Assembly: GCF_026626685.1 (NCBI RefSeq)
Contig: NZ_JAPNJX010000021.1
Coordinates: 297,329-361,328, forward strand
DNA: 64,000 bases
Direction of reading: 5' to 3'
Source of the DNA: Nannocystis sp. SCPEA4
Lineage (GTDB): Bacteria > Myxococcota_A > Polyangia > Nannocystales > Nannocystaceae
Every line of letters begins with the position of its first letter. The stretch's first letter is position 1. The notes beneath the pieces are model-generated. The model was not told the origin of the DNA. It did no database searches and worked only from the letters and a program-made list of their open reading frames with translations. The translations under genes were made by a program, and so were the position numbers. Below are positions 15,001 through 53,818 of this stretch, piece by piece.

Positions 15001-15106
15001 CGCCTACCCCGACGTCGACGGCGACGGTGCGCCCGATCTCGTCGGCCTCGCCGGCGACGGCATGCTCATACGCCGCGGTCGCCGTCCGTCACAAAATGTC
15101 CCATGA
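12005..15106 (+). CDS. FG-GAP/VCBS-repeat (integrin-alpha-like beta-propeller) lipoprotein, ~1030 aa
   Basis: Lipobox FVAAC; repeated Ca-binding DxDGDGxxD motifs (DLDGDGEDE, GDVDGDAHAD, DHDGDGDLD ...); clear paralog of 17951..21052. Confidence 0.8.
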   Translation: MMPRRRSASWIVALAPVGLFVAACGGDEACDPRAGWCGGDPEFRLLATPVDDAVVVDLDGDGEDEAVMLSDGRKLTLAHGAEYDAWRTSVVLGESPLALAALPGEVAVGLGKPPQLAIFAMDADHRLVRRRDIPLSQPPVRLDSADLAGDGTPELLVALPDAKAIAVVDPRDGTVREYPAGEQPIDLEVGDVDGDAHADVVVVDAAGALQLLRGAGDGTLKPAVAQLASVGEFWLRLVDHDGDGDLDAVARRAAQGSVLVHRNDGHGRFSSPIALPVLPAATPSAGLVASPASPSGLASVSIPRDDTLVTWVGKGATWLGRNEQELAETRWVGPGPGDQVLVGSRNSLARLSWRAGFRPLEVWRSTSLNFFDERSLATGDLDSDHLLDFAATSGNLLHLFHGRADGGFDHELQYELDAPATAMVIADVSGDGRDDIVLDDGDDVRALIAGEDGQFLAGPRVVLDFPARALVPLRTGADPPVAIAVLATNANPDDVEVPGARVLRFDDDGLATVTTAIEDLVVDALAPVDLDADGVDEPLILGHRDGATVLTHLTPSDGGFEPDFEHDLAALDVPVAPWPRLTAADLDGDGALEVFFGNSAIRWRIDGLADGAPVTTFEEQEAPTHLHDLDGDERLDAVMFDYNTIAYQRGLGDGTFAAESVETQSPEGLAFALASRPDAQFDLVEVAHQWVASHIVRDVMLPVASAEWFALHGFGFELLDVDLDGDGSDDVAARVAGGVVWSWGSETDPLVHTDGATFSGWSPALAVGDFDGDGFSEVLTAGLGDFIEAFRTSPRLTEQRLVVHPLTTEGIWRLAVADVDGDGHLDILALHMLHVVKLDVARGTAEPFTFEPWQSLAEVPLRDRAQSFQLGDVDDDGDLDAAITFPENPPVLLHSEGLNAWTTVDLPGRMAAFGKLGPDHRVELVTQDGATIYRHEGGDPERRVALVTEEAATLLRVADVDGDERYDLTVVEKQATFAWLLGRGPPARIQLAEAPLTAVAYPDVDGDGAPDLVGLAGDGMLIRRGRRPSQNVP

Positions 15107-15135
15107 GACATGTGGTCTGTCCCATGGAACATGCC
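15091..15135. repeat. 3-4 degenerate copies of the 14-bp-period element (ACAAAATGTC-ccat-GAGACATGTG-gtct-GTCCCATGGA / GGAACATGCC) at the convergent junction of FG-GAP gene 1 and the small lipoprotein gene
   Basis: Read directly; begins within the last codons of 12005..15106. Confidence 0.55.
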
Positions 15136-15172
15136 CGTGGAGACAGGCGCGGCAGCACCGGCCCGTCGCCGC

Positions 15173-15574
15173 TCACGGGCCCTTGCAGTCGGGGACGCCC
15201 TCGAACTTCATGTCGTCGGAGCCGCCGCCGCTGGCGATGAGGCGCTCGTCGGCGCTGAACGTGATGCGACTGGTCGAGCCGCCGTCGCCGGTGAGCACCA
15301 GCGCGTCGCCTTCGCGCGCCCAGCGACCGCCCTCCGTCGCGTCGAGCAAGCGATACTGGTACGAGCCGTCGGGGCACAGCGAGAGCTCGTAGTTGCCGCC
15401 GCGCCCGCCGACGGGCGCGCCGGCGTAGCGCCGGCCCGCGGACTCCAGCGGGGGCAGCCCGTCCGTCGCCGCGGGCTCGGCCGAAGGCGTGGTCGGGGAT
15501 TCGGTGCTCGGGGTCGATCCACCGCGGCATGCGGACAGGAGCAGCGCGAGGGAGAGCGTAAGACGAAGGGACAC
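15173..15574 (-). CDS. Small lipoprotein (~133 aa), function unknown
   Basis: GTG start preceded by AAGAGAGG; predicted N-terminus MSLRLTLSLALLLSAC (lipobox); the listed ORF 15173..15757 extends upstream through R-rich sequence that is unlikely to be coding. Confidence 0.55.
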   Translation of the reverse strand: MSLRLTLSLALLLSACRGGSTPSTESPTTPSAEPAATDGLPPLESAGRRYAGAPVGGRGGNYELSLCPDGSYQYRLLDATEGGRWAREGDALVLTGDGGSTSRITFSADERLIASGGGSDDMKFEGVPDCKGP

Positions 15575-15821
15575 GATGACCTCTCTTGAAAAAACCTCAT
15601 CGTGCGGCGGTCGAGGGTGCCTCGCCCATCCCGCAGATGAATCGGCGCGGCACTCTTTACCACCCCTGGTGCGGGTCGGATACCGCCGACCTCGATCTCC
15701 AGGGATCCTCGACGATCCCCTCGCCGCTCTCACCCGCGCGAGCGAACGGCGGCGCACGCGCGCATCGCATGACCGCGAGGTTCGTCAGGACAGCGGATCC
15801 GCGGGCGCTCTGATACGAACC

Positions 15822-17678: not shown

Positions 17679-17805
17679 GGTCGCTCCTCTCCCTCGAGGT
17701 CGCAGTATCGCCGCGGCGCCACGCGGGCGCGGCCCGTCGCCTGCGCGAGCGGGTGAGGCATGTCTCGGCCCTCGACGCGACGGATTCATCCGCGGCCGGC
17801 CGCCA

Positions 17806-17829
17806 CCGACATGTCCTCTCGAACATGTC
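17806..17829. repeat. Two copies of the 14-bp-period element (CCGACATGTC-ctct-CGAACATGTC) in the divergent S8-protease / FG-GAP-2 intergenic region
   Basis: Read directly. Confidence 0.6.
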
Positions 17830-17950
17830 CTTCTCTCCATACCGCCGCGACGCACGGCATCGGGCCGAGACGCCGCGCTCCGCGCTGAAACCCGCGACGC
17901 GACGGCCCGCTTGCCTGCAGGCGGGCGAGCGTTCAACCTGTCCAGGCTCC

Positions 17951-21052: not shown

Positions 21053-21171
21053 CGCCGCATTCGCGTCACTCGAACAGTCAGCGCATCCGAGCACGAAGTG
21101 GGCAAATACGGCGGGGGACGGCAGACCAATTCGCACGTCGGGTGGGCCCGGAGCGCGGTTATTTCCCCGTC

Positions 21172-21197
21172 ATTCACGCGTTCACGTGACGCTTCAC
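21172..21197 (+). promoter_or_regulatory. Three direct TTCACG repeats (TTCACGCG-TTCACGTG-N4-TTCACGAT) ~150 bp upstream of the Cys-rich peptide gene; candidate regulator-binding site
   Basis: Read directly from the sequence; spacings 8 and 12 bp. Confidence 0.3.
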
Positions 21198-21286
21198 GAT
21201 TTTTCGACTCGACGCAATTGATCGCGGAGCGGGCCTCACTGTCCCGGCGAGGGCGCTGATTCCAACGCCCGGTCCGAACCCTAAAT

Positions 21287-21305
21287 TCACGGCCGAGCGC
21301 CGTGA
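21287..21305 (+). promoter_or_regulatory. Perfect 7-bp inverted repeat TCACGGC-N5-GCCGTGA ~35 bp upstream of the peptide start; candidate operator
   Basis: Read directly from the sequence; shares the TCACG half-site with the upstream direct repeats. Confidence 0.3.
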
Positions 21306-21338
21306 GCAACACCGATAGATCGAGTCAAGGAGATATCC

Positions 21339-21581: not shown

Positions 21582-22335
21582 CGCTCGCACGGCCGGCGTG
21601 AGCCCCGGTGCGGCGCACCGTCCCCTCGTCCGGCCTCGCGCAGGTCCGGACGAGCCCGGACTGGTGAGACCTCCGGGGCTCTGCCGCCTCGTTCACCTGA
21701 CCCCCGGCGCGGCTCCTGCCGCCCGGGGTGTCCGCATGTCCCGCGGGACAGCCTGCGCATCCGCGGTGCACGTGCCCTGTCCTCGAGGTCACATATCATC
21801 ATTGCCTCGCGGCACGCCGCCTGGCCGGCACAGGTCGGCACGCCGATGACTCGGCCCCAGCACTCCGTCCCTGACATGACCCTTCAGACAGCTCGCCCGC
21901 TCATCCCCGCGGCCCGGCGACGCGCGCTCGCTCCAGTTCACCCGCGCACGCCACGCTCGACCTGACCCGGGGCCGCGACCGGAGCGATCCGGCAGCTCGC
22001 CGGACGCTCGTCCTGCGACACCGTGCCACCCGCGATCGGGAAGCGCCTGGGCCGCCGGCGCGCCCGGGCGAAGATGCCCTTCGGAACACGATCGTCGCAT
22101 CCGGCCCCAAAAGACAGGTTTACCGCCGGCCTGCGGGCCCCTGTCCGCCTTCATCCAGGACCGTCGGCTGCAGGCCAGATCGCCGCGGCCGGTGCGAGGG
22201 GCTTCCCCCGTGCGAACCCGCGCTCATGGATGGTTTTTCGGCTACCGAATCCGAGAGGTTCCACTCGTCGCCGATCGCGAGAAACCACCCGTCCCACGAT
22301 GCCGGATCGCCGGGGTCTTCCGCATCATCGCCGGC

Positions 22336-23820
22336 ATGACGCTGAAGATTGCAGGCAAGTGGTGGCTCGCGGTCCCGGTGGCGGTCGGGCTCGCAGGTTG
22401 CGGGGACTCCGGCAACGCGACGGGGACCGACTCCGGGACGATGACCCAGGGGACCGTGGATCCCACCCTCACGGGCACCGCCACCACGCCGACGACCAGC
22501 AACAGCGCGACCGACACGGACACCGGCGGGTCGATGTCGAACAGCGCGACGATGGCGACCACGAGCGTGCCGACGACGTCGACCACCGACGCGACGGCGA
22601 CGTTGACGGCCGGGCCGACCACCGACGCGACCACGACGACCACGAGCGACACGACCACCACCGGCACCACGACGAACACCGACACCACCGGCAACACCAC
22701 CGGCGGCGTGTGCCAGCCGGGCGACCCCGGCAACCCGGGCATGGCGGAGAAGAGCTACATCTTCATCCCCAGCCAGGACCTCGACGACGTCGCCAAGGTC
22801 AACACCCAGACCTTGATCGAGGAGGCGCGCTACAAGATCGGTCCCGGAGGCGAGAGCGCCTCGCGCACGGCGGTCAGCGCCGACGGCCGCTACGTCGTCG
22901 TCAACAACCGCCAGACCGGGCGCAGCACCATGCTCGCCGCCAACGTCGACGACTGCGTCGACACCAACGGCAACGGCATGATCGACACCTCGCAGAGCAG
23001 CGCCGACGTGCGCCCGTGGGGCCAGGACGAGTGCATCCTCTGGCAGATCCAGTGGCCCTACGGCGGCGCCTGGGACGACGGCCCGCGCGGCGTGACCTGG
23101 ACGCCCGGCACCTGGGACACCAACGTCTGCGCCTACGTCGATCCGAAGGTGTGGATCGGCTACATGGCGGCCGATCAGACCAGCGTGCACCTCGTGCGCG
23201 TGGCCGTGAACGGCACCGTCGAGGAGACCATCGCCGTGCCGGGCTGGAACGGCAGCGGCTTCGCGCCCTACGGCGCCGCGCTCGACCCCGACTTCAAGCC
23301 GTGGTTCTCGAGCCTGCGCGGCGAGTTCGTGCGCGTCAACACCGACGTGAACCCGATCACCGTCGACCGCTTCACCCCGCCGGGCAACGTGCAGTCGTAC
23401 GGCTTCACCGTCGACCCCGACGGCGACCCGTGGTTCGGCGGCAACTGCGGCCCGATCACCCGCTTCGACCCCGACACGATGCAGTTCATCGCCATCCCCG
23501 GGACCGAGGGCGGCTGCTGGCGCGGCGTCACGGCCGACAAGAACTTCACGTGGGTCGCCAACAACCAGCCGTGCGCGCTGGCCCAGGTCGATCGCACCAC
23601 CAACACCCTCGTCGCCCAGCACAACACCAACCCGTGCTCGACCGCCATCGGCCTCAGCGTCGACATCGAGGACTACGTGTGGCTCGTCGATCAGGGCGGC
23701 TGGGCGTGGAAGATCGATCCCGACAACGTCGCGGGCATGCAGCAGGTCATCGTCCCCGGCAGCCACTACGTCTACTCCGACATGACGGGCGGCCAGCTGA
23801 AGAGCGTCATCCCGATGTGA
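22336..23820 (+). CDS. Lipoprotein with a long T/S-rich linker and a C-terminal beta-rich (propeller-like) domain, function unknown
   Basis: Start at MTLKIAGKWWLAVPVAVGLAGC (lipobox); ~110-aa T/S/D/G linker; W/G-rich C-terminal domain. The listed ORF starts 48 codons upstream; that 5' extension is less plausible. Confidence 0.65.
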   Translation: MTLKIAGKWWLAVPVAVGLAGCGDSGNATGTDSGTMTQGTVDPTLTGTATTPTTSNSATDTDTGGSMSNSATMATTSVPTTSTTDATATLTAGPTTDATTTTTSDTTTTGTTTNTDTTGNTTGGVCQPGDPGNPGMAEKSYIFIPSQDLDDVAKVNTQTLIEEARYKIGPGGESASRTAVSADGRYVVVNNRQTGRSTMLAANVDDCVDTNGNGMIDTSQSSADVRPWGQDECILWQIQWPYGGAWDDGPRGVTWTPGTWDTNVCAYVDPKVWIGYMAADQTSVHLVRVAVNGTVEETIAVPGWNGSGFAPYGAALDPDFKPWFSSLRGEFVRVNTDVNPITVDRFTPPGNVQSYGFTVDPDGDPWFGGNCGPITRFDPDTMQFIAIPGTEGGCWRGVTADKNFTWVANNQPCALAQVDRTTNTLVAQHNTNPCSTAIGLSVDIEDYVWLVDQGGWAWKIDPDNVAGMQQVIVPGSHYVYSDMTGGQLKSVIPM

Positions 23821-24118
23821 TGCCGCCCCGGGGCCGCCGCCGTCGCGCGCCTCGTCCCTCCCGGACGTGCTGGCGGGGCGCGCGGCTCGGCCATGGAAAT
23901 GTTGCCAGTGCTGCACTCATTGTGAGCAGGCCTGGTCGACGCGGGCCCCGGGTCGCGCCGTCGGGAGATTCAGCACGTGGCGGTCGGGCTCGCGCTCGAT
24001 CGCTGCGTCGAGGGCCTCTCGCAGCGGTGATGCGGGCCGTCCGCCGCCGCCGCCGCGCGGAAGCGAGCGCCCACATGCGCTCACCCAACGCCGTCGCGGC
24101 GAGGCACACTGAGCCGGC

Positions 24119-27100
24119 ATGAGCGCCGGCGACTACGAGATCGCGGAGCAGCTCCACGACGGTCGGACCTCGCAGGTGTTCCGCGGGGTCCGTCGTCGCG
24201 ACGGCGCGCGCGTGATCCTCAAGGCCCTGCGGCGCGAGTACAGCGACAGCGCCGGCGCGGCGCGGCTCGAGCGGGAGGCCGAGCTGCTGCGTCGCTGCGC
24301 CGGGCCGGCGGTGCCCGAGGTGCTCGCGCTCGAGCGCTGGGACACCAGCCCCGTGTTGGTCCTGCGCGACATCGGCGGGCTCGCGCTGCACCGCTACCGC
24401 AAGGGGCGCGAGCTCTCGCTGGTGGCCCGCCTCGACCTCGCGCTGGCGGCGAGCGGCGTGCTCGCGCTGGTGCACGCCGCCGGTGTGGTCCACCGCGACA
24501 TCAAGCCGGCCAACATCATCGTCCACGGCGAGGGCGAGCGCGTGCAGCTGATCGACTTCAGCGCCGCCGCGGCCGGCGAGGGCACGCTGCAGTACATGTC
24601 GCCCGAGGCGACCGGCCGCACCGGCCGCGACGTCGACCCGCGCAGCGACTACTACGCGCTCGGCGTCACCCTCTACGAGCTGTTCACCGGGCGCCTGCCG
24701 TTCGCCAGCGACGACCCGCTCGAGCTGGTCCACGCCCACCTCGCGCGCGTGCCCGCGGCCCCGGCCGCGCTCGAACCTGTCCTCGGGGACACGCTGTCGC
24801 GGATCGTCCTGCGCCTGCTCGAGAAGAGCCCCGAGGCCCGCTACCAGAGCCTCGACGGCCTGCGCCACGACCTCGCCCGCTGCCGCGACGCGTTCGCCCG
24901 CGGCGAGGTCCCCGAATTCACGCCGGCCACGCGCGACCGTCCGCCGGGACTGCAGCTGCCGACGACCCTGTTCGGCCGCGACCGCGAGCTCGCCGAGCTC
25001 CTGTCCGTTTGGACAGGCGTACGCGCCGGCGCCCGCGCCCTCGCGCTGGTGGCCGGCCCCTCGGGCGCGGGCAAGTCGAGCATCCTGCGCGCGCTCGCCG
25101 GGGCCGTGCGCGAGGCCGGTGGCCGCTTCGTCACCGGGCGCTTCGAACAGGTCGAAAGGGTCATCCCCTACGCCGGCCTCCTGGCCGCGCTCGACCGCCT
25201 GCTGCGCCGCGCCCTCGCCGAGCCCGAGGAGCGCCTCGCCGCCACCCGCACCGCCCTGCTCGCCGCCCTCGGCGACAGCGCGGCCGGCCTCGCCGACGTC
25301 CTGCCCGCGCTCGCGCTCGTCACCGGCGTCCGCCCGCGCCCGATCGAGGCCCTGCCCGCCGAGGCCGCCGGTCGCTTCCACGCCGCCGTCACCCGCCTCG
25401 TGCGCGTGTTCGCCGGCCCCGACGCCCCGCTCGTGCTCGCCGTCGACGACCTCCAGTGGGCCGACCCCGCCAGCGTCCGCCTGCTCGACGAGCTCGCGCG
25501 CGAGCCCGGCCTCGATCACCTGCTCCTCGTCGGCTGCTACCGCGACGACGAGCTGGCCGCCGGTCACCCGCTGCGCGGGCTCGTGGCCGACCTGCGCGTC
25601 CACCTCGGCCCGCTCGCCGCCGCCGACGTCGCGCAGCTGATCGGCGAGACGCTCGCCTGGCCCGAAAGACAGGCCGAGGCCCTCGCCGCCGTCGTCGCCG
25701 CCAACACCGACAACAACCCGCTGTTCGTGCGCGCCTACCTGCGCTGGCTGTTCGACCAGGGCCTGCTCGTGTGGTCGCCCGAGCACCAGGGCTGGGCCTG
25801 GGACGCCGCCCGCACCGCCCGCGCCGCTCCCGGCGACGACATCGTCGCGCTGATGACCCGCCGCCTCGCCGCCCTCGACCCCGACGTCCGCGCCGCGCTC
25901 GAGGCCGCGGCCTGCATCGGCGCCCGCTTCGACGTCGCCCGCCTGGCCGGCCTGCTCGGCCGCGACCCGGCCGCCGTCAAGGCCGCGCTCGCACAGGCGA
26001 TCGAGCGCAACCTCGTGCTCGCCGCCGACGCCGACGTCTACGAGTTCGTCCACGACCGCGTGCAGCAGGCCGCCTACGCCGCGCTCGCGCCCGCGGAGCG
26101 CCTGCGCCTCCACCTCGCGCTGGCCCGCGGCCTGCTCCGCGACGCCGCACCACCTGTCCTCGAGGACATGCTCTTCGAGATCGTCGGCCACTACAACCTC
26201 GCCGCCGCCGGCCTCGCGGACCCCGACGAGCGCCTGCGCCTGGCCGAGCTCGACCTCGCGGCCGGCCGCAAGGCCAGGGGCGCCGCCGCCTTCGCCTCCG
26301 CGGTGCAGCTGCTGCGCCAGGGCATCGCCGCCCTGCCCGACGACGCCTGGTCGACCCACTACCCGCTGGCCTTCGCGCTGCACCGCGACTGCATGGAGTG
26401 CGAGCACTTCGCCGGCGACCCCGACGCCGCCGAGGCCCGCTTCGCCCCGCTGCTGGCCCGCGCCCGCGACGACGTCGACCGCGCCGCCGTCCACGACCTC
26501 AAGGTCGGGCTCGAGACCGACCGCGCCAACGTCCAGGCCGCGCTCGTGGCCGGCCGCGCCGGCCTCGCCCTGCTCGGCGTGCAGGTGCCCGCCAGCGCCT
26601 CGCGCCTGAGCCTCCTGCGCGAGCTGGCGACCGTCCGCTGGCTCCGCGGCCGCGCCCCGCTGCGCGACCTCGCCGACCTGCCCGAGGCCCAGGACGTCCG
26701 GATCCGCCGCTCCCTGCGGCTCCTGTGCACGATGTGCGTCTCGGCCTACTACCACCAGCCCGACCTCGCCCTGGTGTACGGCCTGCGCGCGCTGGTCCTC
26801 GCGCTGCGCCACGGCGTGATCGGCGAGTCGGCGATCGCCGTCGCCCTCTACGCCTTCATCCACGTCCACATGTTCAACGACCCCGCCGGCGGCCGGGCCC
26901 TGCAGGACGCCGCCTACGCCCTCGCCGATCGCTTCGGCGACCCGCGGATCCGCCCGCAGCTGGCCAACTACTGCGGCGTCTACGTCGACGCCTGGCTCGA
27001 GCCGCTGGCCGCCGTGGCCCCGCGGCTCGAGCGGGAGATCGATCGCGCGATCCAGATCGGCGACCCGTCGATGGCGCTCTACATCGCCGCCGGCGCGATG

Positions 27101-29155
27101 TACGGCCGCTGGCTCGGCCTCGGCGACCTCGATCAGCTGCAGGCCAGCGCCCGCGCCATGGGCTCGATCGGCGCGCGCCTGCCCGGCCTCGATCAGCGCA
27201 GCTGGCACCTGATGTTCGTGCGCACCTGCATGGCCCTGCGCGGCGAGACCGACGGCCCGACCTCGCTCTCGAGCCCCGGCTGGGACGAGGACAGCCTCGT
27301 CGACGAGCTCGGCCCGCACAGCCGCGCCCTCTCCTCGGCCTACCACCTCGTCAAGCTGGCCCTCCTCTACCACCACGGCGCCTACGACCAGGCCCGCGCG
27401 CTGTCGAAGCGAATGCGCTGGGCTCGCGCCGAGGGCACCCTCCTGCTCGTCGATCAGATCACTCTCGGGCTGCTCGCCCTCACCGGTCCCGGCGAGCCGC
27501 TGCGGCCCAAGGCCCAGCGACGCGCCCTCGCCTGGCTCGGCCACCTGCGCCGCTGGGCCGAGCTGTGCAAGGAAAACATCGAGGGCCGCCTGCTGCTCGC
27601 CGAGGCCGAGCTGGCCCGCTGCCGCGGCGACCACGACCAGGCCGCCCTGCTCTACCCGCGCGCCGTCGAGTCCGCCCGCCGCGCCGGTCACCTGCGCATC
27701 GAGGCCCTCGCGCTCGAGCGAGCCGGCCGGCACGCCCTGGCTCGCGACTTACATGTCCTTGCGACCATGTACCTCGGGGCAGCCGCGGATGGCTACGACC
27801 GCTGGGGCGCCCGCACCCTCGCCGCCCGCCTGCGCGCCGAGTTCCCCGGCCTCGCCGCCCCCGCCGCCCCCGTGGCTCCGCCGCCGCCTGGCCCGCCCAG
27901 CTCCGGCGCCGAGGCGATCGACGTCGCCGCCCTCCTGCGCAGCACGCGGGCGATCACCGGCGAGCTCGTGCTCCCGCGGCTGCTGCGCGCCCTCGTGCGC
28001 ACCGTCGTCGAGGTCGCCGGCGCCCGCCGCTGCTTCGTCCTGCTGGCCGGCGACGGCGGCCTGCAGATCGCCGCCGCCGCCGACGTCGCCGCCGACCGGC
28101 TCGACGTCTTGCAATCTCGGGCCATGTCCGAAGAGCCAGGTCTTCCGCAGTCGCTGGTCCACTTCGTCGCCCGCACCCGGCGCGACGTCGTCCTCGCCGA
28201 CGCCGCCGTCGACCACGACTTCGCCGGCGACCCCGCGCTGGCCGGCGTGCGCTCGGTCCTGTGCGCGCCGATCCTCGGCCACGGCGGGCTCGTCGGCGTC
28301 CTCTACCTCGACAACGACCTCGCCCCGCACACCTTCGGCAGCGGCCGCCTCGTGCTGCTGCGCCACCTCGCCGCCCAGATCGCCACCTCGATCGACAACG
28401 CCCGCCTCTACGAGGACCTGGCCCGCGCCCGCGACGCGGCCGTGCGCACCGACCGGCTCAAGACCCGCTTCTTGCTCAACATGAGCCACGAGCTGCGCAC
28501 CCCGCTCAACGCCGTGATCGGCTACGCCGAGCTGATCCGCGAGTCGGCGGCCGAGGGCGACCTCGCGGCGATCGACGCCGACACCGACCGGATCCGCCGC
28601 GCCGCCGTCCGCCTGGTCCGCACGCTCACCAACATCCTCGAGCTGTCGCGGCTCGAGGCCGACGACGTGGTGAAGCCCGCGCGCGTCGCCGTCGATCCGG
28701 CCGCGATCGTGCGCGAGGCGGTGGCCGCCTGCGAGGCCGAGGCGCACGCGCGCGGCGACGCGCTCGCCCTCGACCTCGACCCGACGCTCGGCGTCTGCCT
28801 GACCGATCCCGGCATGTTCGCCCACTGCGTGCAGACCCTCGTCGACAACGCGGTGCACTTCACCTCGCGCGGCCGCGTCGCCGTCCGCCTCGCCGCCGTG
28901 ATCCGGGGCGACGCGCCGTGGCTCGAGCTGCGCGTCGCCGACACCGGGGTCGGCATCGCGGCCGATGATCTGCCGCGCCTGTTCGTCGCCTTCCAGCCGC
29001 TCGACGACGCGCCCACGCGGGCCCACGAGGGCAGCGGCGTGAGCCTCGCACTCGCCCATCGGTTCGCCCGCCTCCTCGGCGGCGACATCGACGTCGCCAG
29101 CTTCCCGGGCCGCGGCTCGACCTTCGTGCTGCGTCTCCCGGCGCCGCGCGAGTGA
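24119..29155 (+). CDS. Multidomain sensor: Ser/Thr kinase - AAA+/STAND ATPase - TPR-like helical region - GAF - histidine kinase (HisKA + HATPase_c)
   Basis: Kinase motifs VILKAL, HRDIKPAN, DFS, SPE. P-loop GPSGAGKSS. GAF-like region. H-box LNMSHELRTPLNAVIGYAEL. N/G boxes ...VADTGVGI...GSGVSLALA. Continuous 1678-aa ORF. Confidence 0.8.
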   Translation: MSAGDYEIAEQLHDGRTSQVFRGVRRRDGARVILKALRREYSDSAGAARLEREAELLRRCAGPAVPEVLALERWDTSPVLVLRDIGGLALHRYRKGRELSLVARLDLALAASGVLALVHAAGVVHRDIKPANIIVHGEGERVQLIDFSAAAAGEGTLQYMSPEATGRTGRDVDPRSDYYALGVTLYELFTGRLPFASDDPLELVHAHLARVPAAPAALEPVLGDTLSRIVLRLLEKSPEARYQSLDGLRHDLARCRDAFARGEVPEFTPATRDRPPGLQLPTTLFGRDRELAELLSVWTGVRAGARALALVAGPSGAGKSSILRALAGAVREAGGRFVTGRFEQVERVIPYAGLLAALDRLLRRALAEPEERLAATRTALLAALGDSAAGLADVLPALALVTGVRPRPIEALPAEAAGRFHAAVTRLVRVFAGPDAPLVLAVDDLQWADPASVRLLDELAREPGLDHLLLVGCYRDDELAAGHPLRGLVADLRVHLGPLAAADVAQLIGETLAWPERQAEALAAVVAANTDNNPLFVRAYLRWLFDQGLLVWSPEHQGWAWDAARTARAAPGDDIVALMTRRLAALDPDVRAALEAAACIGARFDVARLAGLLGRDPAAVKAALAQAIERNLVLAADADVYEFVHDRVQQAAYAALAPAERLRLHLALARGLLRDAAPPVLEDMLFEIVGHYNLAAAGLADPDERLRLAELDLAAGRKARGAAAFASAVQLLRQGIAALPDDAWSTHYPLAFALHRDCMECEHFAGDPDAAEARFAPLLARARDDVDRAAVHDLKVGLETDRANVQAALVAGRAGLALLGVQVPASASRLSLLRELATVRWLRGRAPLRDLADLPEAQDVRIRRSLRLLCTMCVSAYYHQPDLALVYGLRALVLALRHGVIGESAIAVALYAFIHVHMFNDPAGGRALQDAAYALADRFGDPRIRPQLANYCGVYVDAWLEPLAAVAPRLEREIDRAIQIGDPSMALYIAAGAMYGRWLGLGDLDQLQASARAMGSIGARLPGLDQRSWHLMFVRTCMALRGETDGPTSLSSPGWDEDSLVDELGPHSRALSSAYHLVKLALLYHHGAYDQARALSKRMRWARAEGTLLLVDQITLGLLALTGPGEPLRPKAQRRALAWLGHLRRWAELCKENIEGRLLLAEAELARCRGDHDQAALLYPRAVESARRAGHLRIEALALERAGRHALARDLHVLATMYLGAAADGYDRWGARTLAARLRAEFPGLAAPAAPVAPPPPGPPSSGAEAIDVAALLRSTRAITGELVLPRLLRALVRTVVEVAGARRCFVLLAGDGGLQIAAAADVAADRLDVLQSRAMSEEPGLPQSLVHFVARTRRDVVLADAAVDHDFAGDPALAGVRSVLCAPILGHGGLVGVLYLDNDLAPHTFGSGRLVLLRHLAAQIATSIDNARLYEDLARARDAAVRTDRLKTRFLLNMSHELRTPLNAVIGYAELIRESAAEGDLAAIDADTDRIRRAAVRLVRTLTNILELSRLEADDVVKPARVAVDPAAIVREAVAACEAEAHARGDALALDLDPTLGVCLTDPGMFAHCVQTLVDNAVHFTSRGRVAVRLAAVIRGDAPWLELRVADTGVGIAADDLPRLFVAFQPLDDAPTRAHEGSGVSLALAHRFARLLGGDIDVASFPGRGSTFVLRLPAPRE

Positions 29156-29268
29156 TGCTCCGGCCCACGCCCTGCCACCTGTGACCCCCGACCCGCAGCG
29201 CCGGTGCGTCCGCGCCGCGGCGACGTCGCCTCGACAAGCTGCACCGCCTCCGGCATCCTCGCCCTGGC

Positions 29269-30651
29269 ATGGTCTCGCGCGGTCGCTTGCGACGTTCGGA
29301 CATCGTCGGCGACTGCCCCCACCCGCGCGGACGGGCCCGTGCTTCCGTCGTCCTCGGCCTCGCGACGCTGCTCGGCCTCGCCTGTCGCCCCGACGACCCG
29401 CCCGCCGACAAACCTGTCCCTCCGGACAGCCCCGCCTCCACCCTCACCGTCTACCGGTTCGCTCGCGTCGTCACCGCCCCGCACCAGGTCGTCGAGGGCG
29501 GCGCCGTGGTCGTCGACGGCAAGCGCTTCCACGGCGTCCTCGCGGCCGGCGAGGCCCTGCCCGCCGGGGCCGAGATCGTCGACTACACCCGCTACACCGC
29601 GATCCCCGGGCTCATCGACGCCCACACGCACATCACCTTTTGCTGGGACCCCGCGTGGGGCGAGCGGGCCCCGCACGACCCGTTCCAGATCGCCCAGTCG
29701 AAGGCGCAGCTGCAGCCGCTGGTGGCCGCCAACGCCCGCACGCTGCTGTCGCTCGGCGTCACCACCATCCGCGACCTCGGCTCCGACAACATGCTCGACC
29801 TCGAGACCGGGCGGAAGATCGAGGCCGGCGAGCTCGTCGGCCCGCGGATCTTCGGCGCCGGCGACGGCGTGTGGTCGTCCCGGCTCGCGCCCAAGGAGTC
29901 GAACCGGCCCGGCCAGGCCGACGGCCCCGAGCAGATCGCCGCCACCGTGCGCCGCGAGATCGACGCCGGCGTGCACGTCGTCAAGCTGTGGGCCTCGACC
30001 GGCAGCGACGACGACCTCACCGGCGAGCGCACCTACTCGTACGAGGAGATCAAGGCCGCCGTCGACGTCGCCCACGCGCGCGGGATCCCCGTCGCCGTCC
30101 ACGACACCCTCGGCGTCGTCACCGACGACATCGTCCGCGCCGGCGCCGACAGCGTCGAGCACCCGCGTCACCTGTCCCCCGAGACACTCGCGGCGATGCG
30201 CGAGCGCGGCGTCGCCTACGTGCCGACCATCCACCACAATCACTACTACCGCGACAACATCGAGCGCTTCGGCTTCAGCCCCGACAAGCGCGCCGCCTTC
30301 GACGCCTTCATCGCCGACAACGTCGCCACCGCTCGCGCCGCCCACGCCGCCGGCGTAGCGATCGTCATGGGCTCCGACGCCGTCTACACCGCCTTCGACC
30401 AGAGCACGCGCGAGCTCGACGTGTTCGTCCGCGACGTCGGCATGACCCCCATGGAGGCGCTCGCCACCGCCACCACCAACGCCGCCAAGCTGCTGCGCAT
30501 CGACGACCGCCTCGGCGCGATCCGGCCGGCCTACCTCGCCGACTTCGTGGTGCTCGACGGCGACCTGTCGCAGATCGATCACATCCACAACGTGGTCGCG
30601 GTGGTGAAAGAGGGCGCCGTCGTGTTCGAGAAGTCAGCGGCGAGCAATTAG
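29269..30651 (+). CDS. Amidohydrolase-family metal-dependent hydrolase lipoprotein (imidazolonepropionase / Xaa-Pro dipeptidase-like)
   Basis: Lipobox LLGLAC; GLIDAHTHI metal-binding motif; VHVVKLWAS...; GIPVAVHD; 460 aa. Confidence 0.75.
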   Translation: MVSRGRLRRSDIVGDCPHPRGRARASVVLGLATLLGLACRPDDPPADKPVPPDSPASTLTVYRFARVVTAPHQVVEGGAVVVDGKRFHGVLAAGEALPAGAEIVDYTRYTAIPGLIDAHTHITFCWDPAWGERAPHDPFQIAQSKAQLQPLVAANARTLLSLGVTTIRDLGSDNMLDLETGRKIEAGELVGPRIFGAGDGVWSSRLAPKESNRPGQADGPEQIAATVRREIDAGVHVVKLWASTGSDDDLTGERTYSYEEIKAAVDVAHARGIPVAVHDTLGVVTDDIVRAGADSVEHPRHLSPETLAAMRERGVAYVPTIHHNHYYRDNIERFGFSPDKRAAFDAFIADNVATARAAHAAGVAIVMGSDAVYTAFDQSTRELDVFVRDVGMTPMEALATATTNAAKLLRIDDRLGAIRPAYLADFVVLDGDLSQIDHIHNVVAVVKEGAVVFEKSAASN

Positions 30652-40659: not shown

Positions 40660-40682
40660 ATCGTAGCGAGATCCGCCGCCGC

Positions 40683-44470: not shown

Positions 44471-44562
44471 GAATTCACGGGCGGTATGTGTACCAGTGAC
44501 CTGCGCGGACCGACGACGTCGCGGCCCACGCCGCGTCGTCGTCGGCCGCTGCGATCAGGCCT

Positions 44563-46353: not shown

Positions 46354-46550
46354 GGTCGAAACCTCCGCCGCGACCACGGCCGAGTTCGTGGTTCTCTCGG
46401 AGCAGTGCCCCGTTCCGTCATGGTCGGCGCGCGTGCTCGCGGGGCGAACTCGCGCCTGGGGCCCGCCTGACCGAAAGAATACCGACATGACGTCGCATGA
46501 TTCTCAAGACATGTCCGAACGGCCACTCCGCCCCCGCCTCGAACGCGCAC

Positions 46551-47534
46551 TCACGCGACGTGGACGACGACCTTGCCGGTGGTGCTCCGCGCCGCCATCG
46601 CCTCGTGCGCCCGCGCGACCTCGGCGAGCGCGAACGTCTGCCCGATCACCGGCTCGATCCGCCCCGACGCCGCCCATTCGAGCACCTCGACGAGGGCAGC
46701 CTGTCGCTCCGCGAGCGGCAGGGTGAACGTGGCGAAGCCGACGATCGACTGGTTCTGCGCGAGCAGCCCGGTCATCTGCTCGCGGCTCCACGCGGTGTCG
46801 AACATGCAGTCGGCGCCGAACAGCACCAGCCGTCCGCGCGGCGCCAGGGCTTCCAGGCTGCGGGCCGCGATCGCCCCGCCGCCGGCCACGAACACCACGT
46901 CGGCGCCGCGCCCCTCCGTCGCCTCGCGCACCTGGGCCGGCCACGCCGGATCGGCCATGTCGACCGTCGCCGCCGCGCCGAGGCGCGTCACCAGGGCGCG
47001 CTTGTCCGCGCGGCTCGCCGCCCCGATCACCCGCCCGGCCCCGAGCGCACGCGCCAGCTGCACCAGCAGCGTCCCCACGCCGCCGGCCGCCGAGGGCACG
47101 AACACCGACTCGCCGCCGCGCAGCTGGGCGCCGAGCCGCAGCCCGAGCAGGGCCGTGGGCCCCTGCGCCGGCAGGGCCACCGCCTGCGCGAACGACAGCG
47201 CGTCGGGGATCGCCAGTACGGTCGCCGCCGGCGCGACCGCGTACTCGGCGAGGCCGCCCTGATTCGGCAGCGTGGCGACCACGCGCGTCCCGGCCGCGAG
47301 CCCGCGCACCGCCGACCCGACCGCCTCGACCACGCCCGCCGCCTCGAGCCCCGGCACGAACGGCAGCGGCGGCGCGCCCATCATGTGCCCGGCGCGCTGC
47401 CCCAGATCGGTGTAGTTGAGCCCCGCGGCGTGCACCCGCAGCAGGACCTCGTGCTCACCGGGCTGCGGCACGGCCACCTCCTCGCAGCGGAGCTCCTCGG
47501 GCCCGCCGAACCTGTGAATCCGGATCGCTCTCAT
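46551..47534 (-). CDS. NADPH:quinone oxidoreductase / zinc-type alcohol dehydrogenase-like (MDR superfamily)
   Basis: 327 aa; G-rich NAD(P) fold region GAAGGVGTLLVQLARALGA; typical Qor architecture; divergent from the AraC regulator gene. Confidence 0.8.
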   Translation of the reverse strand: MRAIRIHRFGGPEELRCEEVAVPQPGEHEVLLRVHAAGLNYTDLGQRAGHMMGAPPLPFVPGLEAAGVVEAVGSAVRGLAAGTRVVATLPNQGGLAEYAVAPAATVLAIPDALSFAQAVALPAQGPTALLGLRLGAQLRGGESVFVPSAAGGVGTLLVQLARALGAGRVIGAASRADKRALVTRLGAAATVDMADPAWPAQVREATEGRGADVVFVAGGGAIAARSLEALAPRGRLVLFGADCMFDTAWSREQMTGLLAQNQSIVGFATFTLPLAERQAALVEVLEWAASGRIEPVIGQTFALAEVARAHEAMAARSTTGKVVVHVA

Positions 47535-47602
47535 CCTCGTCCCATCTCCTGCGCGCCGACCGGCGCGCCGGGTGGTCTATAGTCCGGGACGACAGGACGA
47601 AC

Positions 47603-48574: not shown

Positions 48575-48592
48575 ACCTCGCGTGGCGCAGGG

Positions 48593-48616
48593 AGCACATG
48601 CCCCCAGAGACATGTG
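48593..48616. repeat. Two copies of the 14-bp-period element (AGCACATGCC-ccca-GAGACATGTG) between convergent stops of the AraC regulator and the lipoprotein gene
   Basis: Read directly. Confidence 0.55.
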
Positions 48617-48634
48617 CTTCGCGCCGCCCGGCGG

Positions 48635-49780
48635 TCAGCCGACCGGCTCGGTCACCGGCCCGGCCGCGTCGCCGCAGTGCCACTGGAAGTTGTCGACCAG
48701 CACGAAGCTGTCCCAGTTGACGTCGTCGAGGTCGAAGATCGCCAGTACCAGCTCGATGGTCTCGCCGGGCGCCACGTCGGCGGTGGTCGTCAGCCACTTC
48801 GTGCCGGCGCTGTAGCGCATGCACGTGCCGGCGAACTCGGGTAGATCGCCGGCGTCGTCGTACAGCTCGAGGAACGCCGCGTTGAGCGACAGCGCCTTGC
48901 CCTGATCGTCGAACGAGATGTTGCCGGTCCAGTTGGTCGACTGCAGCCAGCCGATGAACATGTCGTTGTACGGCTGGTTCTTCCACGTCGGATACTCCTT
49001 GGTGAAGAACGCCAGATCGAAGCTGAACGACTCGGCGCCCTCGGGGACCGTCGCGGAGAAGCGCAGCTCCTGGTAGTCGTACTTGAAGCCGCTCTGCTCG
49101 AACTGGTTCTCGATCGTCTTCGAGCAGTCGCCGGTGCCGACCAGCGACGGATCGGCCAGGCAATCGCCCTGGACCGGCTGCTTGGTGATCGGCGGCGGGA
49201 ATTTGGTCGTGTCCATGCCGTCGCCGGGCTCGAACCACGAGTTGCAGTGATAGGCGACGTCGCCCTCGTCGGCCGGCACGTCGTGCATCTGCGCCAGGTC
49301 GCCCGTGCTGAGCACCAGGAAGCTGCTGCCCTCGCGCGGCGTGAACGTGGCGGCCTCGCCCCACTGCGAGATGACCCGCAGCCCGGCCGCGTTGCCGTCG
49401 AAGCCGCCGGTCACCGCGACCTCGCCGGGGCAGTTGAGGCCGATCGCCTGCAGCGGGTCGCCGTCGACCGCGTCGCAGGCGGTGTGCAGCTCGGCCGAGC
49501 ACTCCTCGCCGCCGCCGAAGTCGGGCGTGCCGACGTCGAGCAGCGGCCCGCCCGTCGACGTCGGCGCGCCGGTGCTGTCGTCGCTGGTCGTCGCGCCGGG
49601 GGGCTCGCTCGTCGTCGGCGGCCCGCCGGTCGACGGATCGGTCGTCCCCGTCGGCGGGAGCGAGGTCGCGCCCGTGACCCCCGTGGCCCCCGTATTGGTG
49701 CTCCCGCCGTCGTCTCCGCACGCGAGGAGGAGGAGCGAGGCGCACGACAGGACAGGACCCGCACAAGACAACAGCCGCAT
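48635..49780 (-). CDS. Lipoprotein with T/S/P/G-rich linker and a conserved C-terminal domain of unknown function
   Basis: Start at MRLLSCAGPVLSCASLLLLAC (lipobox); the listed ORF starts 24 codons upstream at a GTG. Confidence 0.6.
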   Translation of the reverse strand: MRLLSCAGPVLSCASLLLLACGDDGGSTNTGATGVTGATSLPPTGTTDPSTGGPPTTSEPPGATTSDDSTGAPTSTGGPLLDVGTPDFGGGEECSAELHTACDAVDGDPLQAIGLNCPGEVAVTGGFDGNAAGLRVISQWGEAATFTPREGSSFLVLSTGDLAQMHDVPADEGDVAYHCNSWFEPGDGMDTTKFPPPITKQPVQGDCLADPSLVGTGDCSKTIENQFEQSGFKYDYQELRFSATVPEGAESFSFDLAFFTKEYPTWKNQPYNDMFIGWLQSTNWTGNISFDDQGKALSLNAAFLELYDDAGDLPEFAGTCMRYSAGTKWLTTTADVAPGETIELVLAIFDLDDVNWDSFVLVDNFQWHCGDAAGPVTEPVG

Positions 49781-50118
49781 GGGTCCACACGTTATCACGC
49801 CGCGCCAGCCTACTCGCGCCGATGCGCCGCGGACGAAGATGTCCGAAGTCACTGGTTTTCCGCCGGACGGTCGTCCGAATTTCCGGCATCCGCGGTGTGC
49901 TCATTGCGAGGTCGCCGGGACCCAGCCCGACCGGAAATCATAGGAGTCGGCCCGCGGCCGATTCCTCGCACCGATTGCACCGAGGCGGCCCCCCACGCGA
50001 CGAGGCGGAGCCCGGCGTCGTCCCCCGCATCTCCGCGACGGACTCCTCGCTACCGGCAGCCTGCACGCGCGCCCGCGCGCCGCCCCGCTCGCCGCGGACC
50101 ACGGTATAGTGCCCCGGC

Positions 50119-51513: not shown

Positions 51514-51563
51514 GGCCACACGCCGGAGTTCGGCGTGGAAGCTGGTCTTTCACACCTATTCCA

Positions 51564-51629
51564 AAGGACATGATGCAGAGAACATGCCCGATCGGGCATG
51601 CCTTCCGTGACATGCCCTACGGGCCTGTC
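51564..51629. repeat. Tandem array, 5 copies, 14-bp period (10-mer core NGNACATGCC + 4-nt spacer): AGGACATGAT-gcag-AGAACATGCC-cgat-CGGGCATGCC-ttcc-GTGACATGCC-ctac-GGGCCTGTCC
   Basis: Read directly from the sequence; CATG (or one-mismatch variant) at the same phase in every unit; lies between convergent gene ends (50119..51513 + and 51808..53052 -). Confidence 0.85.
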
Positions 51630-51739
51630 CGGAGCAGCGCCACGCTCGCCTGTCCCGACGCGCCGGCGACATGCTCGTCTCGCCCTCCCGTCTGTGCCGA
51701 GCGGCCGAGCGGTCCTGCCGCCGCATCCCCGGCCTGTGG

Positions 51740-51791
51740 CGTCATGTCCTCCCGAGCATGCTCCATCAGACATGCTCTTTAAAACATGTCT
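51740..51791. repeat. Tandem array, 4 copies, same 14-bp family: CGTCATGTCC-tccc-GAGCATGCTC-catc-AGACATGCTC-ttta-AAACATGTCT
   Basis: Read directly; ~110 bp from the previous array in the same intergenic region; locally AT-rich. Confidence 0.8.
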
Positions 51792-51807
51792 ATTCAAAAA
51801 ATTCGCG

Positions 51808-53052
51808 TCACAGGTCCTCCACCGCGACGCTCGTGCACTCCGGCGGCGCCGTGATCGGATTGCAGCGGGCCGGATTGCCGTCGGGGAATTCGAGCCAGTA
51901 GGTCATCCCGTCGACGGCCGCCGGGAAGTCGTCCTTGAGCATGTGGATCCCCGCGGCCTTGGCGGCCGCCATCCGCTCCGTGCATTCGCCGTCGTCGTCG
52001 CCCGCGCCGCACACGTTGGTGGCGATCAGCATCCTCGCCGCGTGCGCCTGCGTCAGCGCCTCGGTCTCGTCGATCCCGAGCTTGGCGATCGCCGCCCACC
52101 CCGCGGTGAACTGGTTCGGCGTCGCGCGGGCGAACATCGCCCGGCCGTCCAGCGACGTGAACCCGTCGGTGTAGTTCTCCGCGTGGCCGTCCTCGACGTT
52201 GAGCAGCACCACCAGGACCTGCCCGCGCACCTGCGCCAGCGTCGGCCAGCCGTCGGCCTCGAGCGCCGCGCGCACGTTCAGGTGGTCGCCGCGCAGGTCG
52301 TCGGGCGTGAACAGCTGCTCGGGCGGCAGCGCCTCGCGGATCACGTCGTCGATCGCGTCGAGGTCGCCGGCGCCGATCGGCAGCCCGCCGGTCGAGTCCT
52401 TGATCTCGATCCACACCACGATCGGCACGTGCTCCGGGTGCGCCAGCGACCACCCGCCGATCATCCCCAGGCACCCGGACAGGGTCGAGCAGGTCGCCAC
52501 CGAGTCGATCACGGAGATGTGATAGACCTCGAACTCGCTCACGCCCCTGTGCACGTCGAGCTCGAACGCCCGCACGCCCTGCGCGTCGAGCTGCACGTCG
52601 AGCGGCGCGTGGCTGTACTCGTGGCTGGCGTCGAACGCGATCAGCGGCTCGAGGTGGTAGCTGTTGTGCGTGCCCTTGACCTGCACGTGCTGCAGCGTCA
52701 ACACGTCGTCGAGCGATCCGCCGCCGGTCGTGTCGGTGTCACCGGTCGTCGTCGATGTCGAGCTCGTCGAGCTCGTCGCCGTCGAGGTCGTCGACGTCAG
52801 CGCCTCGCTGGTCGCCGTCGCCGCCTCCGACGTCGAGGTCGTCGACGTCGTCTCCCCGCCGGAGCCCGAGCCGGACGTCGGCGTCGTGGTGGTCGGCGCG
52901 TCCGTGGTCGTCCCGGTGCCCGTGCTCGTGCCTGTGCCCGTGCTCGTGCCCGTCGCCGTCTCGCCCGTCGCGCCGCCCGGGGCTGGATCGCCGCAACCCG
53001 CCAGCCCCAGCGCTCCACACAACAACCCGCGTATCAGCCCGCTCGCGCGCAT
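51808..53052 (-). CDS. PI-PLC X-domain-like phosphodiesterase lipoprotein (Ca-dependent phosphatidylinositol-specific phospholipase C-like)
   Basis: Start MRASGLIRGLLCGALGLAGC (lipobox) with GAGGA ~8 nt upstream; long T/S/G linker; catalytic-region motif VKGTHNSYHLEPL. Confidence 0.65.
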   Translation of the reverse strand: MRASGLIRGLLCGALGLAGCGDPAPGGATGETATGTSTGTGTSTGTGTTTDAPTTTTPTSGSGSGGETTSTTSTSEAATATSEALTSTTSTATSSTSSTSTTTGDTDTTGGGSLDDVLTLQHVQVKGTHNSYHLEPLIAFDASHEYSHAPLDVQLDAQGVRAFELDVHRGVSEFEVYHISVIDSVATCSTLSGCLGMIGGWSLAHPEHVPIVVWIEIKDSTGGLPIGAGDLDAIDDVIREALPPEQLFTPDDLRGDHLNVRAALEADGWPTLAQVRGQVLVVLLNVEDGHAENYTDGFTSLDGRAMFARATPNQFTAGWAAIAKLGIDETEALTQAHAARMLIATNVCGAGDDDGECTERMAAAKAAGIHMLKDDFPAAVDGMTYWLEFPDGNPARCNPITAPPECTSVAVEDL

Positions 53053-53160
53053 GCGAGCATCCTCGCACGCCTCGAGCGCGTCTGTCACGGCCACGTGTCG
53101 GCGCACCGGTGTCGTGCGATGCTGCGTGGCCCCGGTGCGCATGATCCCGCAGCCCTTCCC

Positions 53161-53791
53161 CGTCGTCCGCGACTTCGTCCGCGACCGCGATCCGGCGTTC
53201 TACGGCCGCTACCGCCTGTGGTTCCAGCAGGTCGCGCCCTGGTTCGACGATTACCGGGCGCTGATCCCCGTGCGGCCGGGCGCGACCGCCGAGCTCGACG
53301 CCACGCTGGAGGCGCTGCCTTCCCAGAACTGGCCGTTCCAGCGCATCAACCGCGACGAGCACGCCGGCGGCTGGTCGCTCGACCGCGGCGAGCCGGGTCA
53401 GGACCTGCTGTCGCTCGAGCAGCTGTCGGACGTCTGCTACATCGACGCGCGCAACCTGCACTGGGCGCTCGATCGCCTGGCCGTGTTCCTCGTCGACGCG
53501 CACCTGTTCGTGCGCTCGACCGGCGACGGCGACGATCGCTGGCTCGACGAGTACACCCTCGCCGAGGGCTGCGCCGAGGTCCATCGCTGGCTGTGCCCCG
53601 ACCCCGAGTGGGCCGGCGTGTTCAGCGTGTACGAGTCGCTGGTGCGCGAGCGCCCCGACGACCCGCAGCTGCGCCGCTTCGTCGCCTTCGCCCACCGCGA
53701 GCGGGCCGCCGCGCTCGGCGGACCGCGCAGCCGCCAGAGCCGCGAGCACCTCGACCGCGCCCGCGAGCTCGACCCCGACGGTGCGGCGTGA
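53161..53791 (+). CDS. Hypothetical protein (210 aa)
   Basis: Normal-composition C-terminal part of listed ORF 52664..53791, starting MIPQPFPVVRDFVRDRDPAFYGRYRLWFQQ...; divergent from the PLC-like gene. Confidence 0.5.
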
Positions 53792-53794
53792 CGA

Positions 53795-53818
53795 AGGACA
53801 TGTCCGCAGGGACATCTC
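53795..53818. repeat. Two copies of the 14-bp-period element: AGGACATGTC-cgca-GGGACATCTC (contains the perfect palindrome GGACATGTCC)
   Basis: Read directly; fills the 57-bp gap between convergent stops (53791 and 53849). Confidence 0.7.

Follow-up and report, generated by a model that had tools for sequence, protein, structure and literature searches.

How the ends of transcription units are marked in GC-rich bacteria without U-tract terminators is poorly understood, and a 64,000-nucleotide stretch of the Nannocystis sp. SCPEA4 genome (contig NZ_JAPNJX010000021.1, positions 297,329 to 361,328; hereafter the window, numbered from its first base) raises this question through a family of short repeats. 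Half-sites GGACA and TGTCC recur here, in part as arrays with a period of 14 bp and in part as everted palindromes, and an initial annotation had attributed them either to one DNA-binding protein recognizing the half-sites in several arrangements or to an element at 3′ ends resembling repetitive extragenic palindromic (REP) sequences. What, then, is the repeated unit, where does it lie relative to genes, and what keeps it in place? Comparison of the window with other Nannocystis loci confirms the pattern, which proves stronger than first described, and shows that a 14-base module, single or repeated after stop codons, marks the 3′ ends of Nannocystis genes and is kept by selection, and points to a previously undescribed gene-boundary signal that would be read by a putative factor.

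A single 14-bp module underlies the repeats

The basic unit was a 14-bp palindrome, (C/A)TGYCC-N4-GGRCA(G/T), which occurred singly or abutted head to tail in runs of 2–7. The junction of abutting modules, GGRCA|TGYCC, reads CATG, so that the period is exactly 14 bp, and arrays in this register read nnGGRCATGYCCnn. When spacings were counted in 408 kb of DNA, the relaxed pattern TGYCC-Nk-GGRCA was found at 122 sites with k = 4 and at no more than four sites with any other k from 0 to 12. The exact form, TGTCC-Nk-GGACA, was found 69 times at k = 4 and 0–1 times at other small spacings, its raised counts at k = 18 being due to the 14-bp array period. Within the window, nine TGYCC-N4-GGRCA sites were observed versus 0.30 expected, with one versus 0.39 for N5 and none versus 0.32 for N3. 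In the window, a distance of exactly 14 bp separated successive CATGs 16 times, versus 0–3 times for any other distance below 60; in 344 kb of Nannocystis loci the same distance occurred 229 times, versus at most 25 times for any other. CATGs spaced by 39 in these loci were dismissed as Met codons in coding DNA.

The CATG-centred decamer GGRCATGYCC was considered as the unit and rejected, given that arrays end in half-sites, that isolated decamers are near chance and that isolated everted modules are abundant. The terminal half-sites are in register, with T at 0.49 and G at 0.71 ahead of C-rich positions on the left, and with GG, C (0.76) and A (0.54) on the right. A partner half-site at N4 was present for 80 of the 87 decamers, and the seven standing alone were close to the chance number; lone half-sites were as frequent as expected, with no over-representation. 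Beyond the terminal half-sites, the profile of 63 arrays revealed neither flank conservation nor a GTAG or CGTC terminal tag. Only about 10 positions per unit were conserved, and the 4-nt loops were unrelated between copies and between neighbours. Furthermore, a degenerate single module at window position 21777 was the positional orthologue of an N. pusilla array of 4–5 units (L053:3539; L-numbers denote sampled loci outside the window). Arrays and everted palindromes are thus one family with one arrangement, TGYCC-N4-GGRCA, used alone or abutted. The initial annotation had been right to unite them, but the several half-site arrangements that it proposed reduce to this single one. Tandem Repeats Finder detected only the longest array of the window, at 55364–55444.

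Two further features of the sequence were noted. Over the 269 units of all arrays, the junctions ACATGC and GCATGT were commoner than the fully palindromic ACATGT and GCATGC (Watson–Crick 0.31 versus 0.40 expected, z = −3.3), which possibly reflects avoidance of 6-bp palindromic restriction sites. In addition, the isolated modules L044:2401, L044:2813, L092:7418, L103:5869 and L029:3766 have a longer right flank in common, GGACAGGTG (one of them with GGACAGGTA), and may represent a subfamily or bear an additional signal.

Arrays follow stop codons, above all between convergent genes

Genes were called with a codon-bias model, for which the window served as training set, and checked with Pfam and with the public annotation of syntenic loci. 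The 50 arrays of at least four units comprised 31 in convergent, 12 in tandem and 2 in divergent contexts, one in coding DNA and four at locus edges, versus 57 convergent, 163 tandem and 53 divergent among the background intergenic regions of the same DNA (chi-square p = 2e-14; p = 6e-15 when the convergent excess was weighed by intergenic length). The preference for convergent junctions reported in the initial annotation, for which enrichment had been set beforehand as a test, holds across seven other Nannocystis genomes. Arrays generally lay about 0–35 nt after stop codons: those in tandem contexts were situated a median of 17 nt past the upstream stop and 460 nt ahead of the next start, and those in convergent gaps had the nearer stop at a median of 12 nt, several of them overlapping the stop codon. 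Independent public gene calls likewise placed all 12 arrays in L121, L122 and L125 downstream of a stop.

Within the window, the element was present at each of the four gapped convergent junctions (15107–15172; 48575–48634; 51514–51807, with two arrays; 53792–53848) and at none of the three without a gap or with overlapping genes. Overall, most convergent junctions that have a gap contain arrays, as do the ends of tandem transcription units, and the genes that flank the arrays are functionally unrelated.

One gene pair was informative as an observation apart. A LysR(+)/ferritin-like(−) convergent pair overlaps and is element-free both in the window (57712–57766) and in N. pusilla; the same pair in Nannocystis sp. 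ILAH1 (L122:17878–18061) is 182 bp apart and holds two arrays, gap size and element varying together.

Cores are retained as loops and unit numbers change

A fair evolutionary test was provided by locus I, the six-unit array at 55361–55444, whose orthologues were fetched through a neighbouring protein and not through CATG. Between the window and ILAH1, CATG positions were identical at 24 of 24 sites, GGR/YCC positions at 20 of 36 and loop positions at 5 of 24 (Fisher p = 7e-9); the corresponding values for N. pusilla were 23 of 24, 29 of 36 and 17 of 24. All six CATG positions were kept in ILAH1, and N. pusilla retained five CATG and one CATA. Between arrays of N. pusilla and Nannocystis sp. 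RBIL2, a comparison biased in that both were ascertained via their own CATGs, flanks were 94–97% identical, non-core positions had diverged by about 28% and no CATG had changed.

Unit number was variable, with 4+4, 2, 5 and 4 units at the junction of the beta-lactamase-family (bla) and PI-PLC genes in four genomes. Units come and go at the ends of arrays and loops change, yet in four genomes the same junctions keep arrays. Loop identity at lags of 1–3 units equalled that of random pairs; recent slippage and the pasting of copies are therefore both rejected as sources of the arrays, and neighbouring loops lack the similarity expected of a micro- or minisatellite. Together, these comparisons show that the cores and the 14-bp phase are maintained by selection. 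Separately, tandem duplications of 97, 93 and 62 bp (L028:1436–1643, L006:3619–3851 and L098:3811–3910) each bear a module or a short array, indicating that arrays can multiply in that way too.

Modules within genes

Although only one of the 50 long arrays lay in coding DNA, 32 of the 122 single modules were within called genes. Module density was about 14-fold higher in noncoding than in coding DNA, and isolated intragenic modules were nevertheless about 30 times more frequent than chance. The 24 exact intragenic modules occupied all three frames and both strands, and the spacings N1 and N7, which share the codon phase of N4, yielded no site in coding DNA; the everted palindromes accordingly exceed what codon usage can supply, the explanation that had been left open for them in the initial annotation. 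Such an excess, independent of frame, is easier to reconcile with binding sites than with RNA structures at 3′ ends.

About half of the exact intragenic modules (24 genes) were located within the first 20% of the called gene, often in genes for secreted or periplasmic proteins. This clustering may reflect misplaced start codons or a real 5′ bias. An autoregulated DNA-binding gene beside the 5′-proximal modules was sought and rejected, the neighbours being secreted or periplasmic enzymes and kinases.

The family is confined to one Nannocystis clade

We scanned one genome per species, 185,579 species genomes in all, for four successive CATG-N10 units. Among the matches listed (at least 120 loci), at least 43 came from seven Nannocystis genomes: pusilla, exedens, radixulma, bainbridge, punicea, sp. 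RBIL2 and one metagenome-assembled genome. The 77 non-Nannocystis matches listed were unrelated, being perfect microsatellites of 7 or 14 bp. Loci of N. exedens and N. pusilla matched parts of the window at about 86% identity, and one protein encoded in the window was 100% identical to a protein of Nannocystis sp. SCPEA4. The element density was about 10 loci per 64-kb window.

Neighbourhoods of homologues of the beta-lactamase-family gene were then sampled at decreasing identity. Arrays were present at 96%, 87% and 87% identity and absent from the neighbourhoods at 78%, 77% (a metagenome-assembled genome labelled Nannocystis sp.), 68% and 55% (Enhygromyxa salina). Among the genomes sampled, the family is hence confined to one Nannocystis clade. 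The metagenomic lineage L127, with a bla homologue of 74% identity, carried two exact isolated modules inside genes (14151 and 17529) and no arrays, which, in these small numbers, hints that the single module is older than the arrays. The searchable literature on Nannocystis repeats or on the decamer gave no description of the element and returned only p53 papers and a retron review.

DNA site or RNA hairpin

The placement of the arrays recalls intrinsic terminators, of which one feature, a stable GC-rich hairpin after the stop, is present and the other, a U-rich tract, is absent. T frequency was 0.03–0.3 in the 35 nt downstream on the sense strand, and a terminator-consensus scan was negative at the arrays. 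Lacking a U-tract, the element is not a canonical intrinsic terminator. Consensus alone supplied about 90% of the folding energy of arrays, and many single modules had mismatched stems. In tandem contexts, where the sense strand is defined, G·U was not in excess over C·A (21 versus 28) and neither a loop orientation bias nor a tetraloop preference was detected, although these strand-symmetry tests were small (n about 50–70). CATG was invariant even where compensatory change was possible. Simple hairpin covariation was also tried and rejected, being modest within modules, nil for self, outer or skip pairings and weak for array-centred nested pairing.

The fixed loop and linker, the invariant CATG, the lack of sense-strand bias and the intragenic modules favour a factor of dyad symmetry, most simply a dimer on double-stranded DNA. 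We tentatively prefer, at somewhat less than even confidence, a reading in which arrays are cooperative sets of predicted sites for a dimeric sequence-specific factor that marks transcription-unit boundaries. Each module would be a dyad-symmetric site bound by one dimer; abutting sites would allow dimers to bind cooperatively, each rotated by about 120 degrees relative to the last (14 bp against 10.5 bp per turn), and the bound dimers would build a short protein–DNA filament at the 3′ boundary. Such a filament could act alike on transcription from either side, for instance as a block or terminator of read-through or by handling supercoiling between converging polymerases, and the strong hairpin potential of the arrays might add an effect at the RNA level. 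In a stronger form, which we regard as unlikely, a protein specific to the Nannocystis clade would polymerize on the phased modules throughout the genome, and the resulting orientation-independent roadblock or insulator would close transcription units and deal with torsional stress between converging genes. If true, bacteria would have a previously undescribed kind of termination system, encoded in DNA and dependent on a factor, and single intragenic modules would be weaker pause or occupancy sites.

Several observations weigh against a boundary mark read on DNA. Every array is predicted to form long hairpins whichever strand is read (z −2.4 to −6.3; minimum free energy −17 to −58 kcal/mol, with z from −1.5 to −6.3 in nearly all arrays). 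Deviations in the half-sites covary in a manner that preserves base pairs (odds ratios 2.0, 3.8 and 2.0 for the three stem positions that vary), and real arrays fold slightly better than rebuilds with random spacers (−34.9 versus −32.5 kcal/mol, p = 0.01); a pure double-stranded binding site predicts neither. Two N. pusilla convergent gaps lack the element and carry ordinary GC-rich hairpins, as do the convergent gaps of element-free relatives, so that arrays may simply replace such hairpins. Both of the two comparable intragenic modules have one mismatch in N. pusilla, and the presence of modules within genes is not explained. Finally, no binding protein was identified.

The main rival is an RNA-level account, in which the arrays would be REP-like elements of 3′ untranslated regions (UTRs) whose hairpins, formed on either strand, halt 3′-to-5′ exonucleases or, with no need of a U-tract, cause attenuation or termination of transcription, possibly aided by Rho or by an RNA-binding protein reading CAUG-containing stems. 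Position right past stops, the convergent preference and the strong predicted folds on both strands all suit it, as do the pairing-preserving covariation within modules, a small excess of long-range complementarity, the generic hairpins that fill the same type of gap in element-free relatives, and the analogy with E. coli REPs, which are reported to be dual terminator and stabilizer elements enriched between convergent genes. A hairpin alone, however, demands neither an invariant CATG beside saturated loops nor a loop of exactly 4 nt with zero linker; the sense strand shows no G·U bias, loop orientation bias or U-tract, most of the folding energy comes with the consensus, many stems are mismatched, and modules in coding regions would do harm as terminators. 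We consider this account possible but rather doubtful. It does not compete outright with the dimer-site reading, since DNA-binding and RNA-hairpin roles are not mutually exclusive.

Explanations without a boundary function fare less well. That the modules are a selfish or mobile repeat tolerated at 3′ sites without a host function, whether akin to REPs with their associated tyrosine transposases (RAYTs), to REP doublets forming hairpins (REPINs), to miniature inverted-repeat transposable elements (MITEs) or to the footprint of a transposase with TG...CA ends, is suggested by their restriction to one clade, high copy number, REP-like extragenic bias, variable unit number between species and the local 62–97 bp duplications that carry modules. 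TG...CA termini recall the ends of many DDE transposons, a lead only. We judge such an origin improbable: only about 10 bases are conserved, loops are unrelated, flanks and GTAG-type tags are missing, cores are under purifying selection at orthologous sites, and modules of 14–16 bp that sit in genes in all frames cannot be insertions. No RAYT-like open reading frame (ORF) was found in 492 kb by loose tblastn with an approximate probe, a weak test. The 30-fold excess in coding DNA and the clade specificity would also befit a molecular-drive motif like a DNA uptake sequence, favoured by the competence machinery and best tolerated at terminators, but the much higher noncoding density, abutting arrays of up to 6–7 units and tight post-stop placement are not predicted by it, the motif is palindromic and degenerate (Y/R), and isolated half-sites are not over-represented; we give it very little weight. 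The module does resemble a classical dimer operator, with its dyad and fixed N4, and a handful of its sites are close to gene 5′ ends or between divergent genes. An ordinary transcription-factor regulon is nonetheless hardly credible when divergent regions hold only 2 of 45 long arrays and the flanking genes are unrelated. The same slight probability covers chance and codon usage, given counts far above shuffles and the empty N1 and N7 classes in coding DNA, and microsatellites, whose neighbouring units would not differ in their loops and which, in the non-Nannocystis matches listed, are of another, perfect kind.

Comparison with known systems

In distribution and in its proposed role, the closest known kind is the REP sequence and its arrayed form, the bacterial interspersed mosaic element (BIME), although not a REP of the copy-and-paste type. 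Both consist of short palindromic repeats that number in the hundreds, are restricted to one species or genus, cluster in arrays and favour convergent junctions and 3′ ends; for both, roles in termination, mRNA stabilization and topology have been proposed. E. coli REPs have been described as dual terminator and stabilizer elements of 3′ UTRs whose function is still debated (doi 10.64898/2026.03.23.713779), and REPs are imperfect palindromes of about 21–65 nt enriched between convergent genes (PMC1525189). The Nannocystis unit differs in its length of 14–16 bp, in its free loops where REP copies are near-identical, in its abutment at an exact 14-bp period where REPs alternate orientation with variable linkers, and in being also intragenic and without a GTAG or CGTC tag. 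The REP-like 3′-end element of the initial annotation is thereby borne out in its placement (convergent far above tandem, tandem far above divergent) but not as a copy-and-paste repeat, with its unrelated loops, missing tag and intragenic modules. Gyrase binding has been proposed as a further role of REPs, and the REPs of P. putida are reportedly split by context roughly 80/15/5%, close to the 31/12/2 found here.

Arrays of short symmetric sites repeated without a linker at a fixed period are also known from the metboxes of MetJ, the heptads of omega and the hexamers of Fur, in which near-symmetric sites are repeated 2–10 times and occupancy depends on repeat number. Arrays of that type belong to the promoters of a defined regulon and have a period of 6–8 bp, whereas the Nannocystis arrays lie at 3′ ends genome-wide with a period of 14 bp. 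GC-rich bacteria possess 'I-shaped' terminators, stable hairpins just past stops that lack a U-tract and are often shared by convergent genes; these have no sequence conservation, in contrast to the core and rigid geometry conserved across Nannocystis species. The DNA uptake sequence (DUS) of Neisseria and the uptake signal sequence (USS) of Haemophilus are short over-represented motifs, found also in coding DNA and often as terminator-like inverted pairs, but they are asymmetric, nearly invariant, mostly single and without phased tandem arrays, unlike the palindromic and arrayed module described here. Resemblance of the decamer to the p53 half-site RRRCATGYYY is a coincidence, and the MrpC site GTGTC-N8-GACAC has a different spacing. 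The E. coli-type LexA box geometry, CTGT-N8-ACAG, also bears a resemblance.

The family lends itself to dissection: the module is tiny, its N4 and 14-bp geometry rigid, its cores constrained, its loops drifting and its unit number variable, and orthologous junctions can be compared. These features allow sequence to be separated from structure, and a pull-down of the reader protein would be straightforward. For Nannocystis, a natural-product producer, the module is an annotation aid that flags true stop codons and operon ends, and it could serve as a compact bidirectional insulator part.

Elements of the window

The window holds three long arrays, the four short copies of the initial annotation, one short copy added here (46491–46518) and two doubtful pairs; no strand is assigned to the elements described below. 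All four of the short copies, reported in the regions of 15091, 17806, 48593 and 53795, exist, their register running 15095–15133, 17805–17832, 48592–48619 and 53794–53821. Locus A (15095–15148, convergent) is a real element but not the plain 14-bp-period copy it was taken for at 15091–15135: it consists of two one-mismatch modules 21 bp apart, 15097–15110 (TGTCCCATGAGACA; TGTCC-CATG-AGACA) and 15118–15131 (TGTCCCATGGAACA; TGTCC-CATG-GAACA), both with a loop that spells CATG by coincidence, and of a GAGACAG at the flank. The stop codon of the FG-GAP gene 12005..15106(+) falls within the locus; this TGA, at 15104–15106, lies inside the first module, in agreement with the earlier statement that one copy begins in the last codons of a gene. 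Locus B (17805–17832), with two CATG units and one module, TGTCCTCTCGAACA, at 17812, sits between divergent subtilase(−) and FG-GAP(+) genes and is an exception to the 3′-end rule. Locus D (46491–46525) combines two CATG units (46491–46518) with a one-mismatch module in a tandem context, 35 nt past the stop of the ADH gene 46551..47534(−). Locus E (48592–48619) comprises two variant units, GCACATGCCC and AGACATGTGC, which pair mutually and with the flanks (48582–48628), in the convergent gap between an AraC(+) gene and 48635..49780(−). Locus H (53794–53821) contains an exact module (53801–53814) with CATG on its left and CATC on its right. It begins 3 nt after the stop at 53791 of a gene that is 80% identical to an annotated ILAH1 gene and hence real; the convergent gap is indeed 57 bp long, but the element covers about 28 bp of it, so that the claim of a completely filled gap was overstated.

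The long arrays are loci F and G (51564–51619 and 51738–51793, four units each), which share the gap between the beta-lactamase-family(+) and PI-PLC(−) genes, 53 nt past the stop at 51513 and 17 nt from the PI-PLC stop at 51808, respectively, and locus I, whose six units lie 15 nt past the stop of the small ORF 55459..55881(−).

Everted palindromes do occur, at 21737, 25002, 26155 and 29415, 4–17 nt away from where they had been placed. The first, an exact module TGTCCCGCGGGACA at 21735–21750 (14-mer at 21737), is intergenic and preceded by CA, which yields one CATG junction. A site previously reported at 21781 corresponds to the module at 21777–21792, which is real but imperfect (CTGTCC-TCGA-GGTCAC). 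The gene 24119..29155(+), encoding a kinase/AAA/GAF/histidine-kinase protein, includes isolated exact modules at 24778–24791, at 25002–25015 (CTGTCCGTTTGGACAG) and at 26155–26168, the first two having one mismatch each in N. pusilla. Another isolated exact module, CTGTCCCTCCGGACAG at 29415–29428, lies in the 5′ part of the amidohydrolase gene 29287..30651(+), and one at 61634–61647 lies 41 nt before the stop of the gene 61593..63998(−); those at 24778 and 61634 were absent from the initial annotation. Six modules of the window thus fall within 8 kb (21737–29428), with the three exact ones above in a single gene of 1678 amino acids. Two CATGs 14 bp apart form a doubtful intragenic pair at 27747–27774, possibly by chance, and a weak pair at 59102–59129; about 0.7 CATG pairs per spacing are expected by chance in the window.

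In Rfam searches of the window, only two adjacent tRNA genes (9413–9597, + strand) reached gathering scores, and no family covered the element. Directly before array G, the region 51805–51830 (− strand) carries a canonical-looking intrinsic terminator over the PI-PLC stop, a 9-bp stem followed by GAATTTTTTG; the end of the PI-PLC gene therefore bears both kinds of signal. Between loci H and I, the ORFs 53849..54970(−) and 54971..55285(−) share a frame and are separated by one stop codon (region 54968–55285). Hexamer repeats CGGCTC, encoding Glu-Pro on the − strand, are found on both sides of array I (54998–55073 and 55492–55580), and the small ORFs that bear them are annotated at the orthologous loci of N. 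pusilla and ILAH1.

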